DNA from: a plasmid
Sequence record: NZ_CP119397.1
Length of the DNA: 64,000 nt
Direction: 5' to 3' (one strand)
Part shown: in pieces, positions 13,527 to 33,089 of the stretch
How the letters are laid out: each line of letters starts with the position of its first letter
Numbering within the stretch: position 1 is the stretch's first letter
The notes under the pieces: model-generated
Told to the model about the DNA's origin: nothing
What the model saw: only the letters and a program-made list of their open reading frames with translations
Databases searched by the model: none
Position numbers and translations under genes: made by a program

Positions 13527-14129
13527 ATGGCTGCCAAACGCCGCGCCGAAACGATGGAAGAAACCCGCACCAAGTTGATTGCGGCCGCACGAAAAGCCTT
13601 TGCCGAAAAAGGGTTTGCAGCCGCATCAATGGATGATTTGACCGCCAGTGTCGGGCTGACCCGTGGGGCCCTGTACCATAATTTTGGGGATAAAAAAGGG
13701 TTGCTTGCTGCGGTGGTTACGCAGATAGATTCTGAAATGGCGCAAAGCGCTAAACGTGCAGCGGCACATTCCGGTGATGACCAGCAAAAGCTGCTGGCTG
13801 AAGGGATAGCCTATATCAAGATGGCCCTGGATGAAGAAGTCCGGCGCATCGTGCTGCTTGATGGCCCGGCTTTTCTGGGGGATCCGACAAAATGGCCGAG
13901 CCAGAATAACTGCCTCGACGCCACTCGCGAAAGCATTTCAGATCTGATTGAACGCGGCTTAATCAAACCGGTAGATGTCGATGCCACTGCCTGGCTGTTA
14001 AATGGTGCTGCCCTGAATGCCGCCCAGTGGGTGGCCGCCAGCGCAGATCCGCAGCAGGCATTACCTAAAGCGATTCAGGTTTTTACCCTGTTGGTGAATG
14101 GCCTGCTGGAGGGTGCCACACGGCCATAA
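13527..14129 (+). CDS. TetR family transcriptional regulator
   Basis: N-terminal HTH (AFAEKGFAAASMDDLTASVGLTRGALYHNFGDKKGL). Confidence 0.8.
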   Translation: MAAKRRAETMEETRTKLIAAARKAFAEKGFAAASMDDLTASVGLTRGALYHNFGDKKGLLAAVVTQIDSEMAQSAKRAAAHSGDDQQKLLAEGIAYIKMALDEEVRRIVLLDGPAFLGDPTKWPSQNNCLDATRESISDLIERGLIKPVDVDATAWLLNGAALNAAQWVAASADPQQALPKAIQVFTLLVNGLLEGATRP

Positions 14130-14233
14130 CGCCCCATGCGCACCCTGAATGGTCGTTAATAAGCATACCGGGGGTTGATGAAATTAAGCCGGACATGTCA
14201 TGGGCTTACGTGTCATTAGCCCTGTTTCTCCCG

Positions 14234-14758
14234 TTATGAGCAAAACAGATGCTCAACCTCCAGCCAACTGCCTACCCGCCGAAAACCGCTGACCTGCCGG
14301 TTATGAGGGGCAGAAAATAAGATCCCTTCCCCTCTGAAATGCTCAAAATGGCGCGCATTATCATCAATCAGATAATCTGCGTTCAGGATGCTTTTATTAC
14401 CACAGAAGACGATATTCATCGGGCTGATAAAGGAGAAATGTTTGGCCAGCCACTGGAATTTGGCATTAAACGACAGCGGAAATTCCATCGCCGCGGTGGT
14501 GATAAACACCTCATAGGTTTCGGTCAGTTTTTTGATGACCTCCTGGCTGTGCGGTATGACATCCAGATCGGCAAAAAAGCCCGCTTCGCCGATCATCTCT
14601 TCAACCTGCTCTCTGAGTTCCGGATGGAGTTGCTGGATGGTTAACCCCTCCAGGTCAGCCAGGCTGATTTGCAGAGCAAACCGGCTATTAAAGCTCGGGA
14701 TTATCTTGCTGTTAAAGTCAGCAATCACCTCATCCATATCAATCGCAATTCTCTTCAT
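14234..14758 (-). CDS. 5'(3')-deoxyribonucleotidase (HAD superfamily, NT5C family)
   Basis: 174 aa with the N-terminal IAIDMDEVIADF HAD motif I and the length typical of NT5C-type nucleotidases. AT-richer than its surroundings. Confidence 0.6.
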   Translation of the reverse strand: MKRIAIDMDEVIADFNSKIIPSFNSRFALQISLADLEGLTIQQLHPELREQVEEMIGEAGFFADLDVIPHSQEVIKKLTETYEVFITTAAMEFPLSFNAKFQWLAKHFSFISPMNIVFCGNKSILNADYLIDDNARHFEHFRGEGILFSAPHNRQVSGFRRVGSWLEVEHLFCS

Positions 14759-14839
14759 TGGATATCCTCTGTTTTCAGACCCGCAACGAGAAAAATAGGG
14801 TGGCAGACATCACGCATTGGATGCTTATCAGGCATTCCT

Positions 14840-15166
14840 TTACTGCTGTTCTCCCGCCTGGACGCGGGAGCGGTTAGCGTTTCCCCATTCGCAAAGAGGT
14901 TGTAACGCCTGCGCCAGTGTACGTCCAAACTCAGTAATGCTGTATTCAACCCTGGGCGGCACCTCCTGGAAATCGTGTCTTATCAGAATGCCATCTTCAG
15001 TGAGCGATTTAAGTTGCTGAATTAACACCTTTTCACTGATGCCTGCCGTCAGGCGCTTGAGTTCGCCAAAGCGGCGCGGACTAAACTGTAAATGGAACAA
15101 CAGCAGAGGTTTCCATTTCCCGCCAATATAATGCAACGCCACATCAAGGCCGCAGACCGGCTCCAT
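14840..15166 (-). CDS. HxlR family (MarR-like, DUF24) transcriptional regulator
   Basis: 108 aa with CGLDVALHYIGGKWK...L...GISEKVLIQQLK wHTH. Confidence 0.75.
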   Translation of the reverse strand: MEPVCGLDVALHYIGGKWKPLLLFHLQFSPRRFGELKRLTAGISEKVLIQQLKSLTEDGILIRHDFQEVPPRVEYSITEFGRTLAQALQPLCEWGNANRSRVQAGEQQ

Positions 15167-15259
15167 AACTTTTCCTTCATACTTACCTTTTGGTAGGTAC
15201 TATTATATATGAAAGTATAGCGTTACTCTCTTCTTCTACTTCGCAACCGGGATAAAAAC

Positions 15260-16009
15260 ATGGGCAAGCTGGAAGGAAAAGTCGTGGTCATCACTGGCGC
15301 TAACAGCGGTATTGGACTGGCATCGGCAAAGCGTTTTGCCGCGGAGGGCGCGCAACTCTTTATGACGGGGCGCCGTGCAGGCGAACTTGAAAAAGCGGTT
15401 TTTGAAGTAGGTCATAATGCGGTCGGGATACCCAGTGATATCTCGAAAATGCAGGATGTGGAGGCGTTGTTTCAGGAAGTCCAGCGGCAGGCCGGGCATA
15501 TTGACGTACTCTTCGCCAACGCCGGCGGCGGAGAGTTCGCCCCTTTGGCAGATATTACCGAAGCGCATTACTACCGAATCTTTGACACTAATGTTAAAGG
15601 CACGCTTTTTACCGTACAGAAAGCGCTGCCTCTACTGAAAGAGGGGGCTTCTGTCATACTGACCGGTTCCACCAGCGCCACGACCGGTGTGCCGGCATTT
15701 AGCGTCTACAGCGCCAGCAAAGCTGCCGTGCGTAATTTTGCCCGGGCGTGGATCCTTGAACTGGCGCCGAGAAAGATTCGGGTCAATATCCTGGTACCGG
15801 GCGCAACCTCAACACCGGGCTGGCATGGCCTTTCGCCTGACGAGACATTAAACAGTGAAATGATCCGCGCGGTTGAATCCACAACGCCTCTGGGCCGGCT
15901 GGCTGAACCCGCGGAGGTGGCTGCCGCGGCACTGTTCCTGGCATCGGATGACAGCAGTTTCGTTAATGGAAGCGAAGTGTTTGTTGACGGCGGCTCAGCG
16001 CAAATCTAG
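15260..16009 (+). CDS. SDR family NAD(P)-dependent oxidoreductase
   Basis: TGANSGIG glycine motif and YxxxK catalytic motif (YSASKAAV). Confidence 0.85.
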   Translation: MGKLEGKVVVITGANSGIGLASAKRFAAEGAQLFMTGRRAGELEKAVFEVGHNAVGIPSDISKMQDVEALFQEVQRQAGHIDVLFANAGGGEFAPLADITEAHYYRIFDTNVKGTLFTVQKALPLLKEGASVILTGSTSATTGVPAFSVYSASKAAVRNFARAWILELAPRKIRVNILVPGATSTPGWHGLSPDETLNSEMIRAVESTTPLGRLAEPAEVAAAALFLASDDSSFVNGSEVFVDGGSAQI

Positions 16010-16122
16010 CGATTACCTGCACTCCCTCGGCTTTTCAGAGGCCCGGTTTCGCCGGGCTTCTGTCTCTGAAGAAGAGCCGGCCCTCTCTGATAACCCGCTT
16101 CTGACACCGCTTCCTGGCGTAA

Positions 16123-16187
16123 TGTCCGCTCCCTGCTCAACGCGGACAGGGCCACGCGCCCGGCAGCCTGGTGCCGGAAGCGGACGT
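16123..16187. repeat. Copy 1 of ~60-bp inverted-repeat element (TGTCCGCtccctgCTCAacGCGGACA ... GTGCCGGAAGCGGACG)
   Basis: Seen directly. Family defined by L-end TGTCCGCTnnnCGCTCA, optional internal GCGGACA, and R-end CTGTGCCrrAAGCGGACA. Confidence 0.6.
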
Positions 16188-16229
16188 GGTTGAATTCACT
16201 GTCCGGATACGGGCCTCAAGACATTAATA

Positions 16230-17150
16230 TTATCCGTTCACCTCAGTGGTTCTGACGTTCTTCTCACCCCAGTAGGCTTTTGTCTCCACAATCTCTCCCG
16301 CCTCATTGAATTTCATTACGTCGATAACGTCGATAATGACGTTTTGCCCTCCCAGTTCTGTATGAATGGAGAACGCCATCGCAGCAGATTTCCCCTGCGT
16401 TGCCCGTACAGGTGCATTGAGCTCTACCCTGGAAGCCATCCCGTTTTTTACAAAAGACGCCAGGTTTTCTAACCCTGTAATCGGTGCTGTGCCTACCGGA
16501 TCCTCACCACTGAAATCCTGCGCAAACAAACCCAGAAAGGCATCGACATCTTTATTATTGATATGATCGAGATAGGAATGCAGCACACCTCGCATATGAG
16601 CTTCCGTAGGTGGTCGTAATGTATTGACATCAGGCATATATTTCGGAAGAAACGTCTCTTTTTCACCCTTAATAATTTGTATGTCATCCACACCCCAGTG
16701 AGCGTTTAGCGCCACAATTTTACCGTCTGCATTAAAGCGCATTACGTCTACCACCTGGATAAGCACTTCGTGGTCGCCAAAATCCATGTTAATTGTGAAA
16801 GCCATGGCCGCTGACCCACCGGGAGATGTGCGAATCGGAGCAGATAATTCCGCTTTTCGCATTGCAGACAGCCCCTCCCTGACGAAGGTTTCAATATGAC
16901 GTTTCCCGGAGACAGGATTTGCGCCCACCGGATCAATAATCACTGCGTCTTCCGCGTACATATCCAGGATTTTCTGAGGGTTCTTCTGGTTTAAGGCGTC
17001 AATATATTGAGTCAGAACCTCGTGCATATAGGCTTCAGTTGGAGAACAGGGGACCGACTCGCCTTTCATATATGCCTGAAGCACAACCTGCAAATCGGGT
17101 TGTGAATGCCCGCTATCTTTATTCATCACGCTATCCTCGCTAATTTTCAT
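16230..17150 (-). CDS. Tandem-duplicated SnoaL/NTF2-like (ketosteroid-isomerase fold) protein
   Basis: Two ~130 aa internal repeats (EAYMHEVLTQYIDALNQ... and EAHMRGVLHSYLDHINN...), each resembling an NTF2/SnoaL domain. Start taken at MKISEDS (GGAAGGTGG RBS). Confidence 0.55.
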   Translation of the reverse strand: MKISEDSVMNKDSGHSQPDLQVVLQAYMKGESVPCSPTEAYMHEVLTQYIDALNQKNPQKILDMYAEDAVIIDPVGANPVSGKRHIETFVREGLSAMRKAELSAPIRTSPGGSAAMAFTINMDFGDHEVLIQVVDVMRFNADGKIVALNAHWGVDDIQIIKGEKETFLPKYMPDVNTLRPPTEAHMRGVLHSYLDHINNKDVDAFLGLFAQDFSGEDPVGTAPITGLENLASFVKNGMASRVELNAPVRATQGKSAAMAFSIHTELGGQNVIIDVIDVMKFNEAGEIVETKAYWGEKNVRTTEVNG

Positions 17151-17445
17151 AGAGCCACCTTCCCGCTTTCGGTAGAACATGTCGGCACCATCAGCAATGA
17201 AAGATCACTATGTGGCCTCGTACTGTGCCACTGTCTCCTCAATACCGTTTATATCGTCATTACGAACAGTTGCTCACATTATGCACGGTTAACATGCCCC
17301 ACCTATTTACCGGCGGTAGCCGTAAATGAGCCGTTTCAGAATATACATTTATCAAAAACAGGAATAAATCGGCAAAAATAAGAAGATACTTCCCATATTT
17401 GGAAGGTTAAAGGGGGGTTAAGCGCTGCCAGGCTGAAGCGGAAAT

Positions 17446-17510
17446 GTCCGCTCCTCGCTCATAACGACCATAGGTTTATGCGGCGGTCTGTTTTGTGTCA
17501 GAAGCGGACG
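17446..17510. repeat. Copy 2 of the inverted-repeat element (L-end TGTCCGCTCCTCGCTCATAACGACCAT, R-end TGTGTCAGAAGCGGACG)
   Basis: Seen directly. Confidence 0.55.
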
Positions 17511-17846
17511 TTGGCTGAATTGAAAAAAATCGTGATGTGTTTTCATTAACGCAGATCGCCAAGGCCTTGGGTGCATCGGTGGCCGCAGAGGCGATTGACG
17601 CAGTGCAAACGATCGGTGCGGATGCCGTCCTTGGCTATAAGCAGCCGGTTCCAAAGACGCTGGACAGGCAGTACGCACGGCAGCCTGACAGTCGCGGATT
17701 GCGGCAGGCTCGTTAAGTCGGGCGGCGTCATTCTCGACATCACCCGTCGCCATCAACGCTGTTCCGCATATCCTTTCCCCCGGCCGAAAATTTGTGATGG
17801 CAAAGCAGCACATCGCGACGTTACATCCCTTGCAGACTGCGTGCGT

Positions 17847-18320
17847 TTAAATACGATGTGGGCGCGTGGCGAAGAAGACCACCGCGGCGCCGAGAGCGAC
17901 GATGAGCGTATCTTCAATCAGGCCGCTCTTGGTCTGCCCCATCGCTGCCATGGCCTTTTTGCGTGCCGCAAGCGTTGCATAGGCAAGTGGCACAGCGGCA
18001 GAGACAGCGATCGCTGCCCCGGTTTTTTCTTCTCCGCGGGGTGCCAATGCGGCGCCCGCAATCCCTGCACTGGCCACGCGTGCTGACAAGCCCAAAAACA
18101 CGGTGCGGTCCGGCGCTGACTTCATCTTGTCGCCAAAGAGTTCACCTACGCCCATCGCTAACGCGCCGTATTTGAATAGCGGACGGTCCAGCAGCAGGAG
18201 ACTGCCCGAGGTGTCGCGCCCGGCAGCGCGTGCTGTAGCCAGGGCCGCCATCGGCGTCATGGAACGGCAGCTGGCGACAAAGCCAATCAGGGCGGAATAA
18301 ACAAAATCGGTTATTTTCAT
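17847..18320 (-). CDS. DUF4126-like membrane protein
   Basis: 157 aa, Ala/Gly-rich, 4 predicted TM. Assignment from memory, low certainty. Confidence 0.45.
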   Translation of the reverse strand: MKITDFVYSALIGFVASCRSMTPMAALATARAAGRDTSGSLLLLDRPLFKYGALAMGVGELFGDKMKSAPDRTVFLGLSARVASAGIAGAALAPRGEEKTGAAIAVSAAVPLAYATLAARKKAMAAMGQTKSGLIEDTLIVALGAAVVFFATRPHRI

Positions 18321-18435
18321 TAGTTATCTCCCGGATAAACAGAGGTTTTTCCTTTTAGCGCTGAGTCGCATCCTGCAATGCCACAAGGATTTTTGCAGCC
18401 GGTGCGTGCCAGGCCATTCACTGTGCGCGGCCTCG

Positions 18436-18513
18436 TCGGCAAATGACTATTGCAATAGTCAGTATAGATGAACGGTTTGAGACGGCTGAAATGCCGGAAG
18501 TGGGAGGCGGAGG
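18436..18513. promoter_or_regulatory. Conserved ~78-bp upstream block A (GGCAAATGAC...CAGTATAGATGAAC...GCCGGAAGTGGGAGGC) upstream of the DUF4126 gene; contains a minus-strand TCTATACT sigma-S-like -10
   Basis: ~70% identical to the block at 31974-32050. A 14-bp core is identical in both. Confidence 0.45.
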
Positions 18514-18689
18514 AACGCGGAGCGCACGTCATTGCCGGGCCAAACCTCAGTGATAATCATCTGGCCGTCAGGTCGAGCGGCTACGGGCTTACTCCCTTCA
18601 TCGGCATGACTGTTCACCAGGAAGAGCTGATGCCGGACGGCCGCCTCCCGCTCAAAGCTGCCGGAGGTCTTCAATGGGCTTCAGAGTGC

Positions 18690-18742
18690 CAGATGCGGTC
18701 ATTTTGGCATTCGTCAGGCTGCTCTGTGCCAAAAGCGGACAT
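18690..18742. repeat. Copy 3 (diverged L-end; spacer + R-end 44/44 identical to copy at 24757-24800)
   Basis: CATTTTGGCATTCGTCAGGCTGCTCTGTGCCAAAAGCGGACAT identical in both places. Confidence 0.6.
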
Positions 18743-18930
18743 ATGTGCAGGGGTTACGCGTTTTTATTACCTATAGTCCCGGATTGAACAGGGTTACTGG
18801 CAGTTTTTGATGCGTTTTTGATGCATCTGGCAGAACGAACCTGAATGTGAGACCAACGCGCTTTCATCAACTTCTTTCAAAATAGAACCCGATAAGGTTA
18901 TGGTAGAAATTCTCCTTTAACTGGAAGCAG

Positions 18931-19758
18931 GTGTCGCGCATGTCAGCTCCACAATCGAATAAAGACTGGGTCAGAGTTGCACACACGCCGGGAAAAATTG
19001 AACGCCTGGAGGCTTACTTCAGTGGATATGGTTATGAACCTCATCGGCATGATACTTATGCGATCGGCAGGACACTGTCAGGTGTGCAAAGCTTTCGTTA
19101 CCGAGACAGTAAACAACACAGTTTACCAGGCGGGACAATAGTCCTGCATCCGGATGAAATTCATGATGGTGAGGCAGGAACGACAGAAGGATTTCAGTAC
19201 CGGATGCTGTATATCGAGCCGGCGTTAATTCAGAAAATTTTGGGCGGAAAACCATTACCATTTATTCCAGGTGGATTATCAGCAGATCCCCGGCTTTTTG
19301 CCGCTACCGGACCGCTGTTAAAAGCATCAGAAGATTCTATTGATGTCCTTGAAGAGGAGGATGCACTTTATGATCTTGCCCAGACTTTGGCCGTCGTAGG
19401 AGGGCAACGCTTTCGTCGCTGCCTTGTGGATTATCAGTCTGCAGAGCGCGCGCGCGAATATATACAATCGGAATTCAGCCAAAACATTACGCTGGAAACC
19501 TTATCTATCGTCTGTGGTAAAGATCGCTGGAGCCTGAGCCGGGATTTTCGGACACTTTTCGGCACGAGTCCTTATCGCTATGTAACAATGCGCCGTCTTG
19601 CATACTGCAGACATCTTATTCAGATAGGTCTGTCACTTGCTGAATCTGCTTTAGAGGCAGGGTTCTCAGATCAAAGCCATATGACACGGCAGTTTATAAA
19701 AGCATACGGTATTTCTCCGGGCCGTTGGCAAACCTTCATTCACCCCCATTGTGCCTGA
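18931..19758 (+). CDS. AraC family regulator (cupin N-domain + HTH)
   Basis: C-terminal AraC HTH (ESALEAGFSDQSHMTRQFIKAYGISPGRW). Confidence 0.8.
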   Translation: MSRMSAPQSNKDWVRVAHTPGKIERLEAYFSGYGYEPHRHDTYAIGRTLSGVQSFRYRDSKQHSLPGGTIVLHPDEIHDGEAGTTEGFQYRMLYIEPALIQKILGGKPLPFIPGGLSADPRLFAATGPLLKASEDSIDVLEEEDALYDLAQTLAVVGGQRFRRCLVDYQSAERAREYIQSEFSQNITLETLSIVCGKDRWSLSRDFRTLFGTSPYRYVTMRRLAYCRHLIQIGLSLAESALEAGFSDQSHMTRQFIKAYGISPGRWQTFIHPHCA

Positions 19759-19833
19759 GTTGCACGATCGTTCAAGACCGTCACAGCCACTTTATTTATC
19801 CTCGACGTTTCTTAAACATTAAGGAATGTCATC

Positions 19834-20196
19834 ATGTATTTACCGGTAAATCTGGAACAAAAATTCTCTCTTTTCCACACCCACTGGCAGCCAAAAGTCA
19901 TTGCGCAGATGAACGATTACCAGTTCAAAATCGTGAAAATAGCGGGCGACTTCATCTGGCACTCACATCCTGAAACCGACGAGGCCTTTATAGTAGTGGA
20001 GGGCGTATTGCGTATCGATTTTCGCGACGGCCACGTCCTCGTTAATCCGGGAGAAATCTACGTTGTACCAAAAGGTGTAGAACATAAAACGTCAGCCCAA
20101 ACGACGGTAAAAATGATGATGATAGAACCCTGTGGTGTGCTGAATACCGGACATGAGGGTGGGGAACGCACCGCTGAAAGCGATGTCTGGATCTAG
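19834..20196 (+). CDS. Cupin domain protein
   Basis: 120 aa with the two cupin motifs (HSHPETDEAFIVVEG ... PKGVEH). Confidence 0.65.
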   Translation: MYLPVNLEQKFSLFHTHWQPKVIAQMNDYQFKIVKIAGDFIWHSHPETDEAFIVVEGVLRIDFRDGHVLVNPGEIYVVPKGVEHKTSAQTTVKMMMIEPCGVLNTGHEGGERTAESDVWI

Positions 20197-20281
20197 CTGA
20201 GTTGTATCAGACAGCCCGGCTGGCTGGTCTGTCTGATATATCATAACTATTTAATAACCTCAGGCTCAATTCGAGCCTGAA

Positions 20282-20988
20282 CGTCCGCTTCTCGCTCATA
20301 TGGGACATCCATAATCACATCTCCTGCCTAATGGAGATTGAACATGACAATATCCCCCTGGAACAAAAGCCGTATCATTGGCCAGAAGCGACCTCTTCAG
20401 ATATCTCATATCTGGGGAATTCGCATCCGACTCGAGCTGGAAGGAAAAGTACGCGACCTGGCTCTGTTTAACCTTGCTCTGGACAGTAAACTTCGGGACT
20501 GTGATCTGGTGAAGCTGAAGGTTTCTGATGTAGCCTACGGACATTCTGTTTCGGGCAGAGCGACAGTACTGCAGCAAAAAACGGGGAGTCCTGTTCAGTT
20601 TGAACTGACTAAAGGAACCAGAGAGGCAGTAGCTGCATGGATTAGAATGGCTCATCTGCGCAGTGGCGACTATCTTTTCCAGTCCCGCGTCGGCTCTGCA
20701 CGCCACATCTCAACCAGGCAATATAACCGTATTTTTCATGGTTGGATTGAGAAGTTAGGTCTCGACGATTCGCTTTACAGTACGCATTCTATGCGCAGAA
20801 CTAAACCATATCTGATCTACAAAAAAACGAAAAACCTCCGGGTGATCCAGCTACTGTTGGGTCATAAAAAACTTGAAAGCACAGTTCGTTACCTTGGCAT
20901 TGAAGTCGATGATGCCTTGGAGATATCTGAGTCGATTGAAGTCTAAATCGCGAGGGCTGCTGTTGCAGCCCTATGCCAGAAGCGGACA
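20282..20988. mobile_element. 707-bp unit: L-end (CGTCCGCTTCTCGCTCATATGGGACAT) - tyrosine recombinase gene - R-end (CTATGCCAGAAGCGGACA); candidate autonomous member of the repeat family
   Basis: The L-end lies 30 bp before the recombinase ATG and the R-end 25 bp after its stop. The two ends are inverted copies (TGTCCGCTTCT core, 11/11). Confidence 0.5.
20338..20946 (+). CDS. Small tyrosine site-specific recombinase (phage-integrase catalytic domain only, FimB/FimE-size)
   Basis: 202 aa with the R...HxxR...H...Y tetrad pattern: HSMRRT (box II) and LLGHKKLESTVRYLG (His-Tyr). It lacks the N-terminal arm-binding domain and any IntI-specific insertion. Confidence 0.75.
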   Translation: MNMTISPWNKSRIIGQKRPLQISHIWGIRIRLELEGKVRDLALFNLALDSKLRDCDLVKLKVSDVAYGHSVSGRATVLQQKTGSPVQFELTKGTREAVAAWIRMAHLRSGDYLFQSRVGSARHISTRQYNRIFHGWIEKLGLDDSLYSTHSMRRTKPYLIYKKTKNLRVIQLLLGHKKLESTVRYLGIEVDDALEISESIEV

Positions 20989-21034
20989 CAACTAAAACAG
21001 ATGTAGTATGAATAAGGATTAAGGCGCTATATCT

Positions 21035-21664
21035 TCAGCTACGGCTAAATATCAGCTTTAGCCCTGCAATAGCGAAGCAGGAGGCTAATAACGCATCAAG
21101 CCCGCGACGAATACGACGATAAAATGCGCTCATTAATGGAGTCGAGAACAGCAGCGCATAGCCGCAGAATACTGCCACACAAATAGTCGCACAGCCGAAA
21201 ACTATCTCAGGTAAAGCAGAGGCTGCCGCGCCCGGTTTAAGTGCTACGGACATGATCGCCACCCAGGTGAGGATCGCTTTAGGATTGCCGACGTGCATCA
21301 GGATGCCCTGCTGGAAAAGTTTGCCATATGCGACGCTTTTGTCCTGTGATTTACACACGCTGGCGTCAGAGCGGGAAAGCGCAGATTTACCCGCTTTACA
21401 TGCCAGCCATAACAGATACAACCCACCTCCAATTTTTAACACGATCAGCAATTGAGCAAAAGTTGCAAGAACGGTTAACACGCCGCAGGCCGCCAGAAGC
21501 GCCCACATCATCGAACCGCCGATGACACCACCTGCCAGAGCCAAAGCTGCACCGCGGCCCTTATTCATGGCCGTACCCATAATAGCCATATTACTTGGCC
21601 CTGGGCTGGCTGTTGCGACAAAGTAAGTGGTGTAAATAAGAATTAGTTCATGCGAAAGCGCCAT
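21035..21664 (-). CDS. LysE/RhtB family exporter (second copy)
   Basis: 209 aa, LysE-type 6-TM pattern. Confidence 0.75.
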   Translation of the reverse strand: MALSHELILIYTTYFVATASPGPSNMAIMGTAMNKGRGAALALAGGVIGGSMMWALLAACGVLTVLATFAQLLIVLKIGGGLYLLWLACKAGKSALSRSDASVCKSQDKSVAYGKLFQQGILMHVGNPKAILTWVAIMSVALKPGAAASALPEIVFGCATICVAVFCGYALLFSTPLMSAFYRRIRRGLDALLASCFAIAGLKLIFSRS

Positions 21665-21767
21665 GCTTACCTCTATGTTGGGATTGTCCTTTGTTTCAGT
21701 TATATCGAATCGAGTAAAAATTCACTATGCATTCTTGCTTATTCTGACAATGAGCATGTTATCGAAA

Positions 21768-21822
21768 TGTCCGCTTTTCTCTCATAGCTGCTCTTGAAAC
21801 CTGCTCACTGGCAGCTCTGTGC
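21768..21822. repeat. Copy 6 of the inverted-repeat element (TGTCCGCTTTTCTCTCATAGCTG ... CTCTGTGCCAAGAGCGGCC)
   Basis: Seen directly. Confidence 0.55.
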
Positions 21823-22130
21823 CAAGAGCGGCCTTCAGCATTCCGCTTAACAGGGTAACGAAGTAAAAATCCCATTACGCAGAACGGCTTTGTTGCCTGA
21901 CAGAACTCAGTAAATAATGCTGGAGATAGTAAGTGATATTTCAATCAGCTGTCAGCCTGAGAAGCATTACAGCAAAATAAAGGCATGAATGATTTTTATC
22001 CTGTTCATATGTCCGCTAAAAATCCCTACTTCGCAGTTGTCATTTTTGAATAAGCAGTTGTCATCTTCTGATGAGTTTTGGGGCCGATTTAGCACGACAC
22101 TGGGGCATCTTTGTTAAAGAGGAACCCGGT

Positions 22131-23801
22131 ATGTTGAAAAATCCTTCACTCAAGTATAAAGCGCATCCTCCTGTCAGTCTTACTGACAGGCAATGGCCGG
22201 ATAACACGTTGACCCATCCACCGCGCTGGCTTTCTACGGATTTACGCGATGGTAATCAGTCGCTTGCTGAGCCCATGGACAACGCCCGGAAATTGAAATT
22301 TTGGGATCTTCTAATAGCTTGTGGTTTCCGTGAAATCGAGGTCGCGTTTCCCTCTGCTTCACAAACGGATTTTGATTTTGTGCGGACGCTCATTGAAGGT
22401 AAACGCATTCCAAAAAATGTGAACATTCAGGTTTTAACTCAGGCAAGAGAGGATTTGATTAGGCGGACATTTGTATCATTGCAGGGAGTTCATCAGGCGA
22501 CAGTTCATTTATATAATGCGACGGCGCCACTTTTCAGGGAAATCGTCTTTCGTCAGACACGTGATGAAATTGTTCAGCTTGCCATCGACGCGACCAGGCA
22601 AATCCGTCGATTATGCGATGAGACGCCGGAAACCGATTGGACATTTCAGTATTCTCCTGAAACGTTCTGCTTTACTGAGCCTGATTTTGCCCTTCAGATT
22701 TGTGAGGCCGTGGCAGAGGCCTGGGAGCCGGATACGTCTCGTCCCATGATTATCAACCTTCCTGCAACGGTTGAGGTCAGCATGCCTAATATTTACGCCG
22801 ATCAGATAGAATATTTTTGCCGCCATTTTTCGCGCCGCCAGCAGGTTTGTATAAGCGTTCATCCACACAACGATCGTGGAACAGGAATTGCCTGTGCTGA
22901 GCTTGCACTACTGGCTGGCGCTGATCGCGTTGAAGGCTGCCTGTTTGGAAACGGAGAGCGTACTGGCAATGCTGATTTAGTGACGCTGGCGCTGAATCTT
23001 TATACGCAGGGCATCTCACCCGGTCTCGACTTCAGTCAGATGAAAAAGGTGGTTGAAGTGGTGGAGGAATGCAATCAGCTGCCTGTTGCGCCGCGTCATC
23101 CCTACGCCGGCGAACTGGTTTTTACTGCTTTTTCCGGCTCCCATCAGGACGCAATCAAGAAAGGATTTGCTGCACGGCTGGGCACATCAGATTCTTTCTG
23201 GAAAATCCCCTATCTGCCGCTCGATCCGGCAGATATCGGTTGCAGCTATGAAGCGGTTATCCGTGTGAACAGCCAGTCAGGTAAAAGCGGTGCGGCCTGG
23301 CTACTCGAGCAAAATCATAACCTTATCCTGCCACGCCCGCTTCAGCAGGCATTCAGCCTTCGTGTGCAAAAAGAGGCGGAACGTGGTGAGAAAGAATTGT
23401 CACAGATGGCTGTCTGGAACCTGTTTCGTCAGGCGTATGGCATTGTTGACGCACCACCAATTCGTTTAAAAGAGTATGTCTGCAACAATCAGCCTGACCA
23501 GCGTACAGTGCTTTCTGCTGAGCTCATATGCCATGGTAAAAAGCTGAGCCTGACGGGAGAGGGAAATGGTTTCCTTTCAGCGGCTCTTACAGCCCTTTGC
23601 CGGGAGGTAAAAACAGAGCTTGAAATAGTGAGTTATCAGGAGCATGCACTTGGTAAACGCAGCGACAGTCGCTCCGTCGCTTATGTGTGCTGCCAGGACC
23701 GCACGGGGAGGTGCGCATGGGGAGTCAGTATTGACAGTGACATTACCCGTGCCTCTCTGCAGGCTATGCTAAACGCTGCAGCGGATTTCGTCACTTGCTG
23801 A
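22131..23801 (+). CDS. 2-isopropylmalate synthase-like, long bacterial type (LeuA type 2 / HMGL-like aldolase family)
   Basis: 556 aa with DLRDGNQS at the N-terminus, HxH metal site (VHPHNDRGTG) and a C-terminal LeuA dimerisation/regulatory domain. Start at ATG 22131 with an AAGAGGAA RBS. Confidence 0.7.
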   Translation: MLKNPSLKYKAHPPVSLTDRQWPDNTLTHPPRWLSTDLRDGNQSLAEPMDNARKLKFWDLLIACGFREIEVAFPSASQTDFDFVRTLIEGKRIPKNVNIQVLTQAREDLIRRTFVSLQGVHQATVHLYNATAPLFREIVFRQTRDEIVQLAIDATRQIRRLCDETPETDWTFQYSPETFCFTEPDFALQICEAVAEAWEPDTSRPMIINLPATVEVSMPNIYADQIEYFCRHFSRRQQVCISVHPHNDRGTGIACAELALLAGADRVEGCLFGNGERTGNADLVTLALNLYTQGISPGLDFSQMKKVVEVVEECNQLPVAPRHPYAGELVFTAFSGSHQDAIKKGFAARLGTSDSFWKIPYLPLDPADIGCSYEAVIRVNSQSGKSGAAWLLEQNHNLILPRPLQQAFSLRVQKEAERGEKELSQMAVWNLFRQAYGIVDAPPIRLKEYVCNNQPDQRTVLSAELICHGKKLSLTGEGNGFLSAALTALCREVKTELEIVSYQEHALGKRSDSRSVAYVCCQDRTGRCAWGVSIDSDITRASLQAMLNAAADFVTC

Positions 23802-24552
23802 AGTAATCACTGGGCGTCATTCCCATTACCCGCCGGAACATAACGCTGAACGCGCCGGGGCTGGCATAACCTGAATCCAGAGCCACCCGCGTTATTTGCT
23901 CGCCCTGCGCCAGGCGCGTCAGGGCGTGCAGAAGACGTGCTCGCCGAACCCACTCGCTGAACTGCATGCCAGTTTGCTGGTAAAAATGGCGGTTGAGCGT
24001 ACGCCCGCTGGCGTTGATTTTTACGGCCGCCTGCTCAATTGACCAAGTCTCATGCGGTGCATCGCGAACGGCTTGGCATAGCCGTTTCAGTCGCTCTGAG
24101 ACCGGCTCTGGCAGGTGAAACGGAAGCGTGTCCATAACGCGAACTTCATCAAGCATCAGTTCGTAAACACGTTCAGCCCGGCTTCCGGGCGTGTAGTCTT
24201 CAGGAAGCGTCAGCGCGCAGATAATCAGCTCCCGTAACAGGTCACTCACGCCAACAACCTGACAGATGACGGGCAGATCAGCCCGAGCCAGCGGCTCTAC
24301 AAAAAGCACCCTCGCCTTGACATCCCCTGTGATATGAAGAGCATGTGGGATATTTGCCGGTATCCATACTCCGCGTGAAGGAGGGACTATCCACAATCCG
24401 AGCCGGGTCTCAACGCGAATAACACCACTCAGCGTATGAATAAGCTGAGCACAGTTGTGCGTATGCCAGTCTTCATAATCGCCGTGCCTGTAGTCATGTG
24501 CATATGGAATAACTGACCGGCCTGAAAAATCAAAGTCGCTTTGTCTAGTCAC
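23791..24552 (-). CDS. AraC family regulator
   Basis: Cupin N-domain plus C-terminal AraC HTH. Overlaps the leuA-like stop by 11 nt. Confidence 0.8.
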   Translation of the reverse strand: MTRQSDFDFSGRSVIPYAHDYRHGDYEDWHTHNCAQLIHTLSGVIRVETRLGLWIVPPSRGVWIPANIPHALHITGDVKARVLFVEPLARADLPVICQVVGVSDLLRELIICALTLPEDYTPGSRAERVYELMLDEVRVMDTLPFHLPEPVSERLKRLCQAVRDAPHETWSIEQAAVKINASGRTLNRHFYQQTGMQFSEWVRRARLLHALTRLAQGEQITRVALDSGYASPGAFSVMFRRVMGMTPSDYFSK

Positions 24553-24734
24553 TTAATAGATATCGCTCATTCTCTCATAAAGAGTCATTCTGACTCTCTT
24601 TCGACGCACAGCCTTTCATCGCCGCTTTCAGGCATCCTGTATTGAATGGCTTGCGATGTAACAGGCACATACCGCCTACCCGCTCACGACACTAACATTA
24701 TTTGGACGCCGGACCCCTGCCTTATGATCGCCTA

Positions 24735-24800
24735 TGTCCGCTGTTCGCTCACAGCGGACATTTTGGCATTCGTCAGGCTGCTCTGTGCCAAAAGCGGACA
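24735..24800. repeat. Copy 8, best-preserved full element: TGTCCGCTGTTCGCTCACAGCGGACA + TTTTGGCATTCGTCAGGCTG + CTCTGTGCCAAAAGCGGACA
   Basis: Seen directly. Contains three GCGGACA/TGTCCGC cores. Confidence 0.65.
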
Positions 24801-24814
24801 TTGCCGTTTCACTA

Positions 24815-25699
24815 TCAGTATATATCTGTGCGCTGCTGGCAGCATGGCAACAGAAAACGCTGTAATTCAGCCGTGACTTCTTTTGGATTTTCCTCGGCCA
24901 TATGGTGACCGCTGGCTATCGCCTTGCCCCGGACATCACGTGCCCAGGTTTTCCAGATACCTAATACATCGCCATATATATCTTCCAGATCATCATATTT
25001 TGACCATAAACAAAGCGTTGGGCACATAATCAGGTTTCCTTTCTGACGATCCTGAAGCTCATGTTCTTTATCAATGCTAAGACCGGCACGATAGTCCTCG
25101 AGCATCCCATGGACAGTTTCCGGATCATGAATAGCTTTTCTGAACTCAAGGTACTCTTCATTTCCCATTGTTTCAGGCTGCCCTCCATACCATTTGTCAG
25201 GATCAGCGAGTATTGCCCGCTCCGGTTTTTCTGGCTGAGCAAAGAAGAACCAGTGATACCACTGCCGGGCAAACTTCTCATTACACCGGTTGAGGGCTTC
25301 AAGTATTGGAATGCAATCAAGTACGGCAAGCCGTGTGATTCGCTCTGGATAGTCAAGAGCGGCTCTGTAAGCTGTGTAACTTCCTCTGTCATGCCCAACA
25401 AGCGCAAATTGCTCAAAACCAAGCTGACTCATCAACTCAATACAATCTTTTGCTTTAGCTCTTTTAGAAGAACCCGCATGATCGCGCTGATCAGCCGGCT
25501 TTGACGATTGGCCGAACCCCCGCAAATCAGGGCATACGACGGTAAATGATTTGGCTAGCTCGGGAGCCACTTTTGACCAGGTTACATGGGTACGGGGGTG
25601 TCCATGCAATAACAGAACAGGTGGCCCATTCCCCCCATAGCGCACATTGAGCTCTGCTTCTGAAAGGCTGACCCGTGTATGTGTAAATCCTTCAAACAT
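24815..25699 (-). CDS. alpha/beta hydrolase, haloacetate dehalogenase H-1 / fluoroacetate dehalogenase-like (epoxide-hydrolase fold)
   Basis: LLLHGHPRTHVTW...DLRGFGQS...VGHDRGS. Strongly resembles the DehH1/FAcD subfamily including its cap region. Confidence 0.7.
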   Translation of the reverse strand: MFEGFTHTRVSLSEAELNVRYGGNGPPVLLLHGHPRTHVTWSKVAPELAKSFTVVCPDLRGFGQSSKPADQRDHAGSSKRAKAKDCIELMSQLGFEQFALVGHDRGSYTAYRAALDYPERITRLAVLDCIPILEALNRCNEKFARQWYHWFFFAQPEKPERAILADPDKWYGGQPETMGNEEYLEFRKAIHDPETVHGMLEDYRAGLSIDKEHELQDRQKGNLIMCPTLCLWSKYDDLEDIYGDVLGIWKTWARDVRGKAIASGHHMAEENPKEVTAELQRFLLPCCQQRTDIY

Positions 25700-25814
25700 A
25701 TGCTGCCTCCCACGCCACTAGTGTGGGGATAATTATAGGCTGCGGTGTAGTTGGGCACGTTGCTACATAAGGGGTTGGGCAGAATTCACCTTTCATTCGG
25801 CCTGCCTGTTGGTC

Positions 25815-25837
25815 TGCTCTGTGCCGGAAGTGGGTGT
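25815..25837. repeat. R-end-only copy (CTGCTCTGTGCCGGAAGTGGGTG)
   Basis: Seen directly. Confidence 0.45.
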
Positions 25838-25930
25838 TCGGATAAGCATGTTATCGATAAAGTTGTTAAAAATGATGACGCATAGTGTTTATTTTTATAG
25901 GGTAACGGAGGATTCTAAAACCGGCGAGGA

Positions 25931-26695
25931 GTGGGCATGGAAGGTATTCAGAGAAGATTACGCATCGCAGCAGGACAGTTTGCGCCGGTGCGCGGCGGTA
26001 TCGATGAGAATATGCATTATCACGACATGCTGATTAAGTCCGCAGCATCCGCAGGCGTTAACCTGATCATCTTCCCTGAACTCTCTCTGACAGGTTATGA
26101 ACCTGACATGGCTGAAGAGCTGGCTCTGGCTGATGAAGCCTGTCTTAGCCCACTTCAGGTATTGTCTGACAGATACGATATGACGATTATCGCAGGTGCA
26201 CCGCTGCGTGTTAAAGAGGGAAAACCGGCCATTGGTGCCTGTGTGATTTCTTCCGGGCGGCCTGTTTTCTATTACCGAAAAATGCATCTTCACCCTGGGG
26301 AGTCCGACTATTTTTCAGTGGGTCATACGGAGTGCATTTTTAAGGAACAGGCATTTAATGTAGGCGTAGCGATATGCGCAGATGCAGGACAACCGGTGCA
26401 TGCAGAACGCACGGTACAGCAGGGTGCTGACGTGTATCTGAACTCCGTGTTGAGCGCCGGTGGGTATGACAAAGATGCCGGGCAGCTTCAACATTACGCC
26501 AGACTTTACGCAATGCCCACGCTGATGGCCAATTACTGTGGCCCGTCAGGTGGCTGGAAACCGGCAGGTAAAAGCGCCGCGTGGGATGCCGGGGGTGAAC
26601 TTATCGCGCAGGCTCCGGAGGATTGTGCTGCCCTGGTTATCATGAACATTCAGGGCGGAGAGTGTTCGGGCGACGTCATCCGTCTCAATACATAA
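25931..26695 (+). CDS. Carbon-nitrogen hydrolase (nitrilase-superfamily amidase)
   Basis: FPELSLTGYEP catalytic Glu motif and the downstream Lys/Cys region. Confidence 0.8.
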   Translation: MGMEGIQRRLRIAAGQFAPVRGGIDENMHYHDMLIKSAASAGVNLIIFPELSLTGYEPDMAEELALADEACLSPLQVLSDRYDMTIIAGAPLRVKEGKPAIGACVISSGRPVFYYRKMHLHPGESDYFSVGHTECIFKEQAFNVGVAICADAGQPVHAERTVQQGADVYLNSVLSAGGYDKDAGQLQHYARLYAMPTLMANYCGPSGGWKPAGKSAAWDAGGELIAQAPEDCAALVIMNIQGGECSGDVIRLNT

Positions 26696-26755
26696 AAGTA
26701 AGCCAGGGAAGTCCACTGTGCCTTTTAGCATTCACTTAAGAAGTGAAAAGAGACA

Positions 26756-26781
26756 TGTCCGCTTTTCGCTCAACGCGGACG
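26756..26781. repeat. L-end hairpin-only copy (TGTCCGCTTTTCGCTCAACGCGGACG)
   Basis: Seen directly. Confidence 0.5.
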
Positions 26782-26864
26782 TTTATTTTCAGCGCGCACG
26801 AGTGATACGCACAAGAACGTCCTGCCAGTGGGCGGGTGGCTTACAGGGTGGCTATAAAACAGGA

Positions 26865-27179
26865 TCACAATTCCTGCAGAGACTGGAGGATCGTCTCGTT
26901 CATTTCGCGCACGGCCTGGTCGCGCCGGCGATAGTAGGTCCATTTGCCTACTTTGCTGGCTTCAAGCAGCCCGGCATCATGCAGCGCTTTGAGACACAGC
27001 GAGGTGGCGGGCTGTGACAGCCCCGCCTTGTTCTGGATAAGACTGGCACACACACCGTACTGTTCGAAAGGGTAGAGCTGAGAATAGCCAGCAAAAGCTT
27101 CATCAGGGGCTCTAAGCCATTTCAGCACCGCAACCCGCGTAGGGTTGGACAGTAATTTAATGGCGTTTTCTGGTGACAT
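26865..27179 (-). CDS. ArsR/SmtB family transcriptional regulator
   Basis: 104 aa wHTH (LSNPTRVAVLKWL...GLSQPATSLCLKALHDAGLL). Confidence 0.75.
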   Translation of the reverse strand: MSPENAIKLLSNPTRVAVLKWLRAPDEAFAGYSQLYPFEQYGVCASLIQNKAGLSQPATSLCLKALHDAGLLEASKVGKWTYYRRRDQAVREMNETILQSLQEL

Positions 27180-27193
27180 GCCATCTCCAGGTG

Positions 27194-28312
27194 TCAGGAA
27201 GAGTAAAAAGGATAATCAGTATAACCTTTTCGGGTCCCGCCATACAGCGAGGCTGTCTCTACTTTATTCAGCGGGTAGCCCGCGTTAAAACGCGCAGGTA
27301 AATCCGGATTAGCGATAAACGTGCGCCCAAAGCCGAACAGATCTCCCCAGCCCTTTTCCAGCATACGTTCGGCTTTTTCCAGGGTATAGCGGCCAGAATA
27401 CATAATCGGTGAACGGAAGGTTTCCCGAAGCGCAATACGAAAACTCTCCGGCATATCCGGGCTATTATCCCAGTCAGCTTCGGCGATTGACAGATAACCC
27501 ACGCCGAGCTCGTTCAGGAGCTGCGCTGCACGGATGTAGGTGGCATGTGGATCGCTCTCAACCAGCCCCAGATAGACGCGCTCTTCATCCGTACTCGAAA
27601 ACAGGGGAGCAAAGCGCACACCGACGCGGTGACTCCCGAATACGGCGCTGACTGCCTCAGTCACTTCACGCAGGAAGCGCAGGCGGTTATCAAGTGAGCC
27701 GCCATATTCATCGCTACGGAAGTTAGTGTGTTCAGAGATAAACTGATTGATCAGATAACCGTTGGCTGAATGAAGCTCAACACCGTCAAAGCCCGCTTTT
27801 TTTGCGTTCTCCGCGGCGGTACGGTACATCACCACAATCTCTTTCACTTCCGCCGTTGTCAGTTCGCGCGGCGTGCTGGGTGCAGTCAGGATGCCGGCAC
27901 CGGGCCCGGTTTCAATAAATACCCTGACACCGGTAGCGGTAACCGGGGAGGGTGCCACGGGGGATTGCTTTTCCGGCTGAAGTTCGGTGTGGGAAACCCG
28001 GCCGACGTGCCAGAGCTGACAGAAAATGGTGCCGCCCTCTTCATGAACCGCATCGGTGACTTTTTTCCACCCTGCGATTTGCGCTTCGCTGTGTATACCG
28101 GGCGTCCAGGCATATCCCTGGCCGCGGGGTTCAATCTGCGTGCCTTCGGTGATCATAAAACCGGCGCTGGCGCGCTGGCGGTAATAATCCACCATCATTT
28201 CCCCAGGGATGTTGCCGGGCTGCTCACTGCGGCAACGGGTCAGCGGCGGCAGGGCAATACGGTTACGGAGCGGGTAACCACCCAACTGCAGGGGAGCAAA
28301 AAGCGACGACAT
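27194..28312 (-). CDS. Old Yellow Enzyme family NADH:flavin oxidoreductase (alkene reductase, NemA-like)
   Basis: MSSLFAPLQLG...ALPPLTRCRS...HSANGYLINQF motifs. Start chosen at the second ATG (AAGGA RBS). Operon with the upstream arsR. Confidence 0.85.
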   Translation of the reverse strand: MSSLFAPLQLGGYPLRNRIALPPLTRCRSEQPGNIPGEMMVDYYRQRASAGFMITEGTQIEPRGQGYAWTPGIHSEAQIAGWKKVTDAVHEEGGTIFCQLWHVGRVSHTELQPEKQSPVAPSPVTATGVRVFIETGPGAGILTAPSTPRELTTAEVKEIVVMYRTAAENAKKAGFDGVELHSANGYLINQFISEHTNFRSDEYGGSLDNRLRFLREVTEAVSAVFGSHRVGVRFAPLFSSTDEERVYLGLVESDPHATYIRAAQLLNELGVGYLSIAEADWDNSPDMPESFRIALRETFRSPIMYSGRYTLEKAERMLEKGWGDLFGFGRTFIANPDLPARFNAGYPLNKVETASLYGGTRKGYTDYPFYSS

Positions 28313-28444
28313 AAGTAAAATCCTTCGATAAATAAGAGGGGGCATTATATTTAAAGATTTAAATATGTAAATGTTTAGTTTGTGCTGTTTTCCAGGCAGC
28401 CCCGGCGTGTGTGCTTCCCCCTCGCCGCCATCCGCTGGTCAGCC

Positions 28445-29281: not shown

Positions 29282-29437
29282 ACATACCCTTAAAGAGTGA
29301 AAACGAGCGATAACGTGGAGGATGACTTTTCATCATGCTAAACAAGGTATTCCTCTGTTAAAATCGATATTATTTCACTGCTTAGTGATATTTTGTCACT
29401 GAGAACAAGGCCTGCACAGGCATTCAAGGCTGCTATC

Positions 29438-30328: not shown

Positions 30329-30430
30329 CCTCGCCGGTACTGATAAACGCTACCCCCGGCTCCATGTGCAGCCGTAACACCTCTTCCAGGCCACCCGCCA
30401 CCCGAAGAGGGGGGCGTTAAGGCCCATCAA

Positions 30431-30494
30431 TGCCCGCTTGCCGCTCAAAGCGGACATGGCACCCGCCCCAGGCGGTTCTGTGCCGGAGTGGGCA
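30431..30494. repeat. Copy 11 with covarying ends (TGCCCGCttgccgctcaaaGCGGACA ... TTCTGTGCCGGAGTGGGCA)
   Basis: The L-core TGCCCGC and R-core GTGGGCA change together relative to TGTCCGC/GCGGACA. Confidence 0.55.
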
Positions 30495-30586
30495 TCGATC
30501 ATAGAAAATGTGCCATTCTGAGCGCCCGGCGCGTATCCTGCCTGACATAATGACCCTGCGATGTGCGTACTTCTGAGGATGCCGAC

Positions 30587-31910: not shown

Positions 31911-31973
31911 GTTGTTCTCCTGATGGTCATGGGGAGGGTAGGGGTCAGGTCATTAACCGTGCGCAACCTTGCA

Positions 31974-33075: not shown

Positions 33076-33089
33076 AAATTCCCTTATTG

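Follow-up and report, generated by a model that had tools for sequence, protein, structure and literature searches.

The plasmid record NZ_CP119397.1 carries, within the 64,000-nucleotide stretch analyzed here (the window), a 707-bp unit at positions 20282-20988 in which a small tyrosine recombinase gene is enclosed by two palindromic ends that recur nearby as short, gene-less repeats. This arrangement raises the question of what kind of element the unit is. An earlier note on this DNA, made from the sequence alone, considered it to be either a full-length element with the short repeats as its gene-less derivatives, comparable to an insertion sequence (IS) with its MITEs (miniature transposable elements with inverted repeats) or to repetitive extragenic palindromic (REP) sequences with their REP-associated tyrosine transposases (RAYTs), or an invertible or excisable cassette. 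We suggest that the 707-bp unit is probably the recombinase-bearing member of a site-specific gene-cassette system. Its ends belong to two classes of site that are clustered in co-oriented arrays, the unit is conserved across genera, and gene modules have been exchanged with crossovers at the central motifs of the sites.

Two classes of palindromic site in a co-oriented array

The repeat of about 66 bp is composed of two adjoining palindromic sites, A and then B, which are joined by a linker of 15-20 bp. The consensus of site A is (A)YGTCCGCTnn-TCGCTC-AnAGCGGAC, and that of site B is GTCCGCTnn-GTGCCA-nnAGCGGACRT. The arms GTCCGCT and AGCGGAC, with exactly 10 nt between them, are common to both classes, which differ only in the central motif, and A is nearly the reverse complement of B, with two changes. 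Alternatively, each site may be divided into a central 6-7 bp and an arm of about 9 bp on either side; both classes look like tyrosine-recombinase core-type sites. In the short copies the two ends lie about 30 bp apart (24735-24751 and 24783-24800), in agreement with the earlier estimate of 20-40 bp.

The sequence AAGCGGACA occurs eight times in the window against 0.76 expected, a number that none of 100 shuffles reached. Full sites of the form GTCCGCT-N10-AGCGGAC, counted with at most two arm mismatches, number 9 against 1.8 in shuffles; they have the 10-nt spacing, lie on the + strand and fall between 16.1 and 35.1 kb, and the remaining 45 kb of the window contains none. A similar clustering is seen in a 47-kb stretch of a Pantoea vagans plasmid, where the sites are confined to about 19 kb around the gene. 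In the window and 12 enterobacterial loci taken together, 96 sites are co-oriented with the recombinase gene and 12 are not (binomial p=4e-11, with the gene's own flanks excluded), and the opposite-strand matches are mostly weak, with 3 mismatches. The orientation of the recombinase gene relative to the sites is likewise constant in the enterobacterial copies examined that have detectable sites.

The sites sit in intergenic gaps that separate self-contained modules, and the two classes alternate along the array: the intervals from B to A are gene modules, and those from A to B are either the 15-20-bp linker or the recombinase gene. Solo A and solo B sites also exist, at 26755 and 35096 in the window and at E. 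coli loci.

Crossovers at the central motifs

A module consisting of an AraC regulator and a cupin gene (18726-20312, + strand, identified with Pfam), with the B central motif at its left end and the A central motif at its right, is 97.1% identical to a segment of a P. vagans plasmid (L083 24171-25757) that has unrelated neighbors on both sides. The identity runs from the GTGCCA of a B site to the TCGCTCATA of an A site. From the B site of the doublet at 24734-24801 onward, the hydrolase module is homologous to P. vagans pPant2, and other modules start or end at sites in plasmids of Pantoea, Kosakonia, and Duffyella.

In the island of E. coli Nissle 1917, the order is B, hypothetical gene, A·gene·B, ETEC_3214, A, hypothetical gene, A·B, TonB-receptor operon, A·B. 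Strain 3-72 has flanks 99.8% identical to those of Nissle 1917 and is without two segments of the island. The larger indel, of 2170 bp, lies between two B sites and contains the recombinase gene together with a hypothetical gene and an A site. In Nissle the left site reads GTCCGCTCT GTGCCAG GAGCGGAC and the right site GTCCT GTGCCAG ATGCGGAC; the single site in 3-72 reads GTCCGCTCT GTGCCAG ATGCGGAC and thus combines the left arm of one site, GTGCCAG, and the right arm of the other. The two parental B sites have only CTGTGCCAG (9 bp) in common. The second indel, of 991 bp, lies between two A sites, and its junction falls within TCCGCTCCTCGCTC. In STEC309 the right neighbor switches directly after GTGCCAGA, beside the central motif, and the left side is an A·B doublet joined at the B center. 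These configurations recur, with both flanks around the gene in 204 genomes and one flank only in about 160. Because the arms stay with their flanks and the exchange takes place within the central 6-9 bp, the pattern is that of site-specific recombination by a tyrosine recombinase. Neither RecA-dependent recombination nor random microhomology deletion is expected to give such junctions repeatedly.

The recombinase unit and its protein

The two ends of the unit, CGTCCGCTTCTCGCTCA at 20282-20298 and CTATGCCAGAAGCGGACA at 20971-20988, were found where they had been reported, around a sole open reading frame (ORF) at 20338-20946. As for the reported spacings, the left end is 39-45 bp upstream of the start codon and not 30 bp, and the right end starts 24 bp past the stop codon (reported as 25 bp). 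The left junction of the unit is an A site (20281-20308, + strand), ACGTCCGCTTC-TCGCTC-ATATGGGACAT, and the right junction is a B site (20965-20989, + strand), GCAGCCCTA-TGCCAG-AAGCGGACAC. At both junctions the outer arm agrees with the consensus and the inner arm (ATATGGGACAT and GCAGCCCTA, respectively) is degenerate, so that the unit corresponds to an A·B doublet with the gene in place of the linker. The same A site is found 5' of the gene at L001-L009, L015, L081, and L091, and the same B site 3' of it at other enterobacterial loci.

The gene (20344-20946, + strand) encodes a tyrosine recombinase of 200 aa. The length of 202 aa given in the earlier note corresponds to a real ORF that begins with an alternative TTG start at 20338 (+ strand), but the start used by the homologues is the ATG at 20344. 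The protein is identical to WP_212589205.1, a "site-specific integrase" of Chimaeribacter arupi and Nissabacter archeti. Its description as a catalytic domain only is borne out by the fact that PF00589 (Phage_integrase catalytic domain) is the single Pfam match, with E=4.3e-19 over residues 37-186 and a score of 69.4 bits, above the gathering cut-off of 27.1 bits, which places it in the superfamily; the quoted motifs HSMRRT and LLGHKKLESTVRYLG are both present. The candidate catalytic residues R51, K79, H148, R151, H174, and Y183, whose roles were assigned from motif position (HSMRRT, LLGH, RYLG) and an alignment with XerD, are unchanged in 26/26 homologues. The protein scored far under the cut-off of every NCBIfam equivalog, including XerC, XerD, the integron integrase, and the Fim-type invertases. 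The score was 15.5 bits against a cut-off of 435 bits for the integron-integrase model NF011946 (337 positions), and 34.2 bits against 222 and 21.8 against 221 for the tyrosine-type DNA invertase models NF007371 and NF007370, respectively. A sequence search of PDB returned only the C-terminal domain of XerD, with E ~1e-3. The AlphaFold model, built with 26 close homologues, reached a predicted local distance difference test (pLDDT) score of 50 and a predicted template modeling (pTM) score of 0.43; it was too poor for a fold search and was not used. The xerC gene beside mcr-10 was also considered and proved to be a different recombinase of 331 aa; the first 50 kb of pMCR10_090065 contains no A or B sites.

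Distribution and conservation of the unit

The recombinase family matches more than 548 genomic loci and comprises 667 clusters at 50% identity (E <= 1e-30), nearly all of 200-290 aa. The identity of the protein is 85-95% across Enterobacterales, Proteus, Providencia, and marine gammaproteobacteria. The order A-gene-B was found in Erwinia, Leclercia, Buttiauxella, Providencia, Pectobacterium, and Pantoea, and also in Phytobacter, Klebsiella, Edaphovirga, Rahnella, and E. coli. Across the enterobacterial copies examined, which come from more than 10 genera, A precedes and B follows the gene wherever both sites are detectable, so that the expectation that homologues would be flanked by the same ends was confirmed within this group. 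Over all loci, the end motifs are present upstream of the gene in 41% and downstream in 33%, compared with 4% at control positions, and the enrichment holds in the beta- and gammaproteobacterial homologues. The homologues of Pseudomonas and Burkholderiales (about 63% identical) have terminal inverted repeats of 25-33 bp with the same CCGCTTCTGGCC core.

The BLAST matches in 196 plasmid records end at about 20280-20990 of the window, which is the boundary of the unit. These shared ends, together with the homology that stops at the unit, support the earlier claim of a physical link between the repeat family and a dedicated recombinase. From the invariant placement of the gene between the sites and the co-conservation of the ends, we infer that the recombinase would be the enzyme that acts on the A and B sites.

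The recombinase gene was detected in 196 plasmid records with blastn and in 406 with tblastn, and it occurs in 959 of 5426 complete E. coli genomes, where it is almost always chromosomal; these include Nissle 1917, CFT073, and ATCC 25922. A·B doublets occur in 2234 plasmid records, of which 1221 are from Klebsiella, and a single record can have as many as 17 places; the 1059 E. coli genomes that carry doublets have a median of one. None of the records examined annotates the unit, the sites, or the arrays as a mobile element. Two contigs match the window at 99.3-99.6% identity, one from ENA and one of 278 kb from GCA_018257325.1.

In Pseudomonas, Pseudoalteromonas, and their relatives, the same outer arm, GNCCGCTTCTGGCC, abuts other conserved inner sequences, for example GTTTTTACACAG…CTGTGTAAAAAC and ATTCTGTTGAAAAAGT (L022 3047; L023 8327, 9034, and 10753; L027 2487; L034 8047; L052 2206). 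Inserts of further kinds may therefore make use of this type of site. In E. coli LR-06 (L090 5870-6290), an A·B doublet lies between a Hachiman system (HamA and a helicase) and an FRG-domain gene, in an island beside tRNA-Thr.

A and B sites at the hotspot of P2-like prophages

The same sites were found at the variable locus of P2-like prophages, between the tail-fiber-assembly and sheath genes, a hotspot that is known for anti-phage genes (PMC9122126). All six E. coli prophages carry a B-type site (…CTGACAGTCCGCTCTGTGCYAG…) in the backbone just past the tail-fiber-assembly gene, and five of the six carry an A site (TCGCTCAAAGCAGAC…) ahead of the sheath gene, while the cassette-side arms and the flanks vary with the cassette (L089 7120-8930; L102-L106). 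The hotspot of L089 contains two cassettes with an A·B doublet at their junction. The sixth prophage, IHE3034 (L106 5830-6000), has a degenerate A site and, behind it, only codons 1-38 of the recombinase gene, fused to the P2 backbone. This truncated copy keeps the leader of the recombinase gene, sits just before the sheath gene, and bears the RefSeq label of a partial integrase.

In another group of P2-like prophages (L107 5440-6033 and many further matches), no A or B sites were detected at this position. Prophages of the L107 type carry there a serine recombinase ("recombinase family protein") with inverted tail-fiber-assembly genes.

In its passages on exchange, a 2026 study of the P2/P4 hotspots leaves the route by which they exchange genes with other mobile elements unresolved (PMC13586616). 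The same passages describe transposable elements as nearly absent from the hotspot and point out that homologous recombination would need shared flanks.

A model for cassette exchange and its alternatives

In the mechanism that we propose, the 200-aa recombinase would bind the arms as dimers, two like sites (A×A or B×B) would synapse, and the strands would be exchanged within the central motif. Recombination between direct repeats would then excise a circle consisting of one or more modules and a composite A-x-B site, and this circle could insert again at any A or B site already present on a plasmid, island, or prophage. Integration of such circles would build co-oriented arrays, and a cassette lying between a B and an A site could be replaced. 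We infer both the circular intermediate and a double-stranded rather than folded single-stranded substrate. Since the recombinase gene lies between unlike central motifs, it should not excise alone; it would hold the x position of one doublet and travel with an adjacent module, as in the 2170-bp indel. A polymorphism between A-gene-B and A-x-B, affecting the recombinase gene alone at one orthologous locus, was not found. The circle model would account for the constant orientation of the sites, the doublets at cassette junctions, the solo sites at array ends, the independent reassortment of linkers and modules, and the replacement of cassettes between B and A in P2-like prophages.

Several observations weigh against this model. 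The sites, in 2234 plasmid records, far outnumber the gene, in 196-406 records, and many arrays are therefore without a recombinase in cis. The Kosakonia orthologue (L085 3963-4030) of the solo A-type site at 26755-26782 is a full A·B doublet in which B lies beside the module; an A-type site facing a B site implies an A-with-B event or a conversion, which the pairing of like with like does not predict. A breakpoint at about 16008 of the window, relative to about 5665 of L097 (GCA_018257325.1, 99.6% identical), is located off any A or B site. In GC-rich distant lineages, no arrays could be made out with degenerate motifs, which are too noisy there. The poor structural model (pLDDT 50) offers no view of how a protein with only a catalytic domain would bind DNA. 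Finally, the doublet forms a long hairpin (z=-6.5), which keeps a folded, attC-like substrate under consideration.

This last point leads to the proposal that the A·B doublet is a single attC-like folded site, as in integrons, in which A pairs with B with mismatches at the center, the recombinase works on the folded strand, and replication resolves the product. As single-stranded DNA, the canonical doublet folds into one long imperfect hairpin of -19.3 kcal/mol (z=-6.5), and the doublet at 24734-24801 has a comparable fold (-19.9 kcal/mol, z=-4.9). The two positions at which A and the reverse complement of B differ are conserved and recall the extrahelical bases of attC, and the sites are all co-oriented, as in integrons. 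However, solo A and solo B sites serve as crossover partners, and the crossovers fall at both A and B instead of at one fixed point of a composite site. The arms are too invariant for a covariation test and do not tell two local hairpins from one long hairpin. We regard a folded substrate of this kind as a slim chance. Another possibility is that the sites are used by a different enzyme, either a XerCD-like host factor or the recombinase of some other mobile element, and that the 200-aa protein is a passenger or has a narrower role, for example multimer resolution or inversion of its own segment. Such a division of labor would fit the facts that most site-bearing replicons are without the gene and that the protein has no core-binding domain, and the Pseudomonas-type homologues lie between inverted repeats of identical sequence, arranged as in an invertible segment. 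It is nonetheless unlikely, because the gene occupies the linker position (A to B) and not a module position in the enterobacterial copies with both sites detectable, and its orientation relative to the array never varies. Moreover, the ends are co-conserved with the gene across genera, with the motifs still enriched in beta- and gammaproteobacterial homologues, and the identical arms suit a homodimer and are, by inspection, unlike the dif consensus.

It has also been proposed, in the earlier note, that A-gene-B is an autonomous transposable element of which the doublets of about 66 bp are non-autonomous derivatives, spread by the recombinase. The short copies are indeed gene-less versions of the unit, and remnants of the unit interior persist in some doublets; the near reverse complementarity of A and B, the true 25-bp inverted repeats at the Pseudomonas-type ends, the leader hairpin that sequesters the Shine-Dalgarno (SD) sequence in the manner of IS10 and IS50, and the presence of several recombinase copies within a few kb at L004, L010, and L036 also recall an IS. 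The IS/MITE analogy suits the anatomy of the repeats but not their dynamics. Transposition fits poorly, and we consider this proposal quite unlikely. No target-site duplications are visible at the unit or at the doublets, and the copies are co-oriented and clustered in one stretch of about 19 kb. Solo A and solo B sites exist and join in exchanges, the indels are bounded by two like sites and not by the two ends of one element, and the moving segments are the B-to-A intervals, the inverse of the proposed element. Hardly credible, in our view, is the suggestion that the repeats are ordinary intergenic hairpins (terminators, mRNA stabilizers, or REP-like sequences) that lie by chance beside a recombinase gene, with the indels produced by microhomology deletion. 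The repeats are indeed intergenic and palindromic, but there are no T-runs behind the hairpins, the terminator scan called none of them, and no Rfam family was matched anywhere in the window. In addition, the repeats do not occur throughout genomes: doublet-bearing E. coli genomes have a median of one doublet, and the other 45 kb of the window has none. Independent breakpoints fall repeatedly in the same 6-7 bp. Site-specific exchange of cassettes, with the 707-bp unit as its recombinase-bearing member, is thus the reading that we prefer.

Comparison with known systems

The system resembles integrons and pdif modules in function but lacks the defining features of both. As in integrons, there is a tyrosine recombinase together with co-oriented, imperfectly palindromic sites that separate exchangeable cassettes; there are arrays without a nearby recombinase, comparable to clusters of attC sites lacking integron integrases (CALINs), and the doublets fold as a hairpin with central mismatches. 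The recombinase, however, has 200 aa, consists of the catalytic domain only, and does not resemble IntI. Instead of R''/L''/L'/R' boxes or a GTTRRRY core, the sites combine GTCCGCT/AGCGGAC arms with either of two central motifs; GACGTT closes some of them, but no complementarity is seen between the flanking 7-mers, as judged by inspection and not with an attC covariance model. The gene lies inside a pair of sites within the array, whereas an integron integrase gene adjoins attI and a Pc promoter. The cassettes are complete operons that include regulators and lie in either orientation, whereas those of integrons are mostly promoterless and co-oriented, and crossovers occur at both A and B.

In pdif modules, as here, plasmid accessory modules are bounded by short sites of the form arm/6-bp center/arm and are shuffled between replicons. 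In the pdif sites of Acinetobacter the XerC arm differs from the XerD arm; these sites alternate in orientation, and the host Xer proteins act on them. In contrast, both arms of the present sites are the same inverted sequence, and by inspection they do not constitute a 28-bp dif-like site; the sites are co-oriented, two central motifs alternate, and the array itself contains the gene of a dedicated recombinase. The logic is also that of engineered recombinase-mediated cassette exchange (RMCE) with heterospecific lox or FRT sites, where a segment between sites that differ only centrally can be swapped without loss, and the P2 hotspot has the same geometry of backbone, B, cassette, A, backbone. 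The likeness to RMCE is one of logic only, as the system described here is natural and its small recombinase is unrelated.

FimB and FimE are tyrosine recombinases of about 200 aa without an N-terminal core-binding domain and act on short inverted repeats, and in size and domain composition they are similar to the protein studied here. Yet the invertase model gave 34 bits against 222, and the sites flanking the gene differ in the central motif. In the assembled sequences of the enterobacterial loci examined, no segment was found in both orientations, the gene having a constant orientation relative to the co-oriented sites. Of the two cassette types that had been considered earlier, the excisable, pdif-like one is thus favored, and Fim-type inversion is without evidence. 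With IS/MITE and RAYT/REP pairs (including REPINs) the system shares a coding full-length unit and many gene-less short copies with the same inverted-repeat ends. Terminal inverted repeats are present in full-length and miniature copies, as for IS and MITEs, and the leader hairpin masks the ribosome-binding site. The enzyme, however, is a tyrosine recombinase and not a DDE or HUH transposase. It also differs from IS/MITE pairs in the absence of target duplications, in the clustering and co-orientation of the copies, and in the fact that the moving segments lie between the repeats. Similarly, unlike RAYT/REP systems, it has no HUH Y1 transposase (PF00589 is the only Pfam match) and does not reach hundreds of copies genome-wide.

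Other sites and modules of the array

The array in the window contains further sites besides those at the recombinase unit, all on the + strand. It begins with an A·B doublet at 16122-16187, recognized by the site motifs. In the next doublet (17444-17511) the linker contains the unit-like sequence TCATAACGACCATA, a trace of the unit interior. At 18638-18742 there is a longer element of 105 bp, where a degenerate A is followed by an extra B-like half (18684-18703) and then by a full B (18717-18740), which forms the left boundary of the AraC-cupin module; the right part of this element is almost identical to the doublet at 24754-24801. To the right of the recombinase unit, the boundary between the LysE module and the leuA-AraC module is an A·B doublet at 21767-21835. 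The doublet at 24734-24801 has an A site that is a perfect 11-6-11 palindrome (ATGTCCGCTGT-TCGCTC-ACAGCGGACAT). A degenerate B-like site, a weaker match found by inspection, lies in the gap between a hydrolase gene and a CN-hydrolase gene (25811-25837). The solo site at 26755-26782 has an A-type central motif and adjoins the helix-turn-helix (HTH)/alkene-reductase module. A diverged A·B doublet was recognized by the site motifs at 30430-30495, and a solo B site at 35096-35122 is the last of the array.

The modules separated by these sites are a SnoaL-domain protein, a protein of unknown function, AraC with cupin, LysE, a LeuA-like protein with AraC, the hydrolases, an HTH protein and alkene reductase with LysR and a metallo-beta-lactamase (MBL)-fold hydrolase, and a five-gene block. 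They carry AraC, LysR, or MarR regulators and lie on both strands. The G+C content at 14000-34000 is about 0.48-0.57, compared with about 0.58-0.65 in the flanking DNA, which is consistent with acquired cassettes. In the contig of GCA_018257325.1, P2-like baseplate and tail genes replace the short-chain dehydrogenase/reductase (SDR) and HxlR genes to the left of 16008, about 115 bp from the first doublet.

Leader and trailer of the recombinase gene

The leader of the recombinase gene contains a hairpin, ATCTCC-N8-GGAGAT (20319-20338, + strand), in which the SD sequence is paired with an upstream anti-SD sequence, as seen in the folds of the homologue loci. In single-sequence minimum-free-energy folds, the SD sequence of the recombinase gene is paired at 65 of 75 diverse loci, compared with a mean of 46 and a maximum of 56 in shuffled controls. 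The letters of the stem vary by lineage and the pairing is kept (ATCTCC/GGAGAT, GTCCTCC/GGAGGAC, and CAGACTCC/GGAGTCTG). We suggest that the hairpin masks the start of the gene and controls its translation. Hairpins of this kind are a device of some IS transposase genes, namely those of IS10 and IS50.

Just 5' of the hairpin, a CATAAT or CATACT motif is found at many loci (the window and its equivalents in L001-L079). One may speculate that the CATAAT at about 20311 is the -10 box of the recombinase gene; the scan of the unit for promoters and terminators gave no consensus promoter on the + strand and no terminator. A GC-rich hairpin just past the stop codon, GGGCTGC-TGTT-GCAGCCC (20954-20971, + strand), is kept in enterobacterial units (GGGCTGCAACAGCAGCCC), and part of its 3' arm also belongs to the inner arm of site B. 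It has no T-run behind it and was not called by the terminator scan.

Implications

Whether Proteobacteria possess a third gene-cassette capture system, so far unrecognized, besides integrons and pdif modules is in our judgment an evenly balanced question. Such a system would consist of a recombinase of about 200 aa with a catalytic domain only, housed between its sites, and of bipartite A-x-B sites with two classes of central motif, and it would move whole accessory and defense modules among megaplasmids, genomic islands, and the P2-like prophage hotspot. Keyword and site-sequence searches of about 8 million full texts, which do not cover the older P2 papers, returned no prior description of it, and the passages of the 2021 tyrosine-recombinase classification matched by a few terms do not deal with proteins without a core-binding domain.

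A small recombinase with two classes of site could serve in cassette-exchange engineering, and the sites provide a sequence signature by which cassettes can be delimited computationally. Among the modules seen so far are metabolic genes together with their regulators, an operon for iron uptake, and candidate anti-phage genes. If the recombinase acts on the sites, this would explain how such modules hop between unrelated replicons without shared flanking homology, and, if true, the cassette system would supply the exchange mechanism that has been left open for the P2/P4 defense hotspots (PMC13586616).

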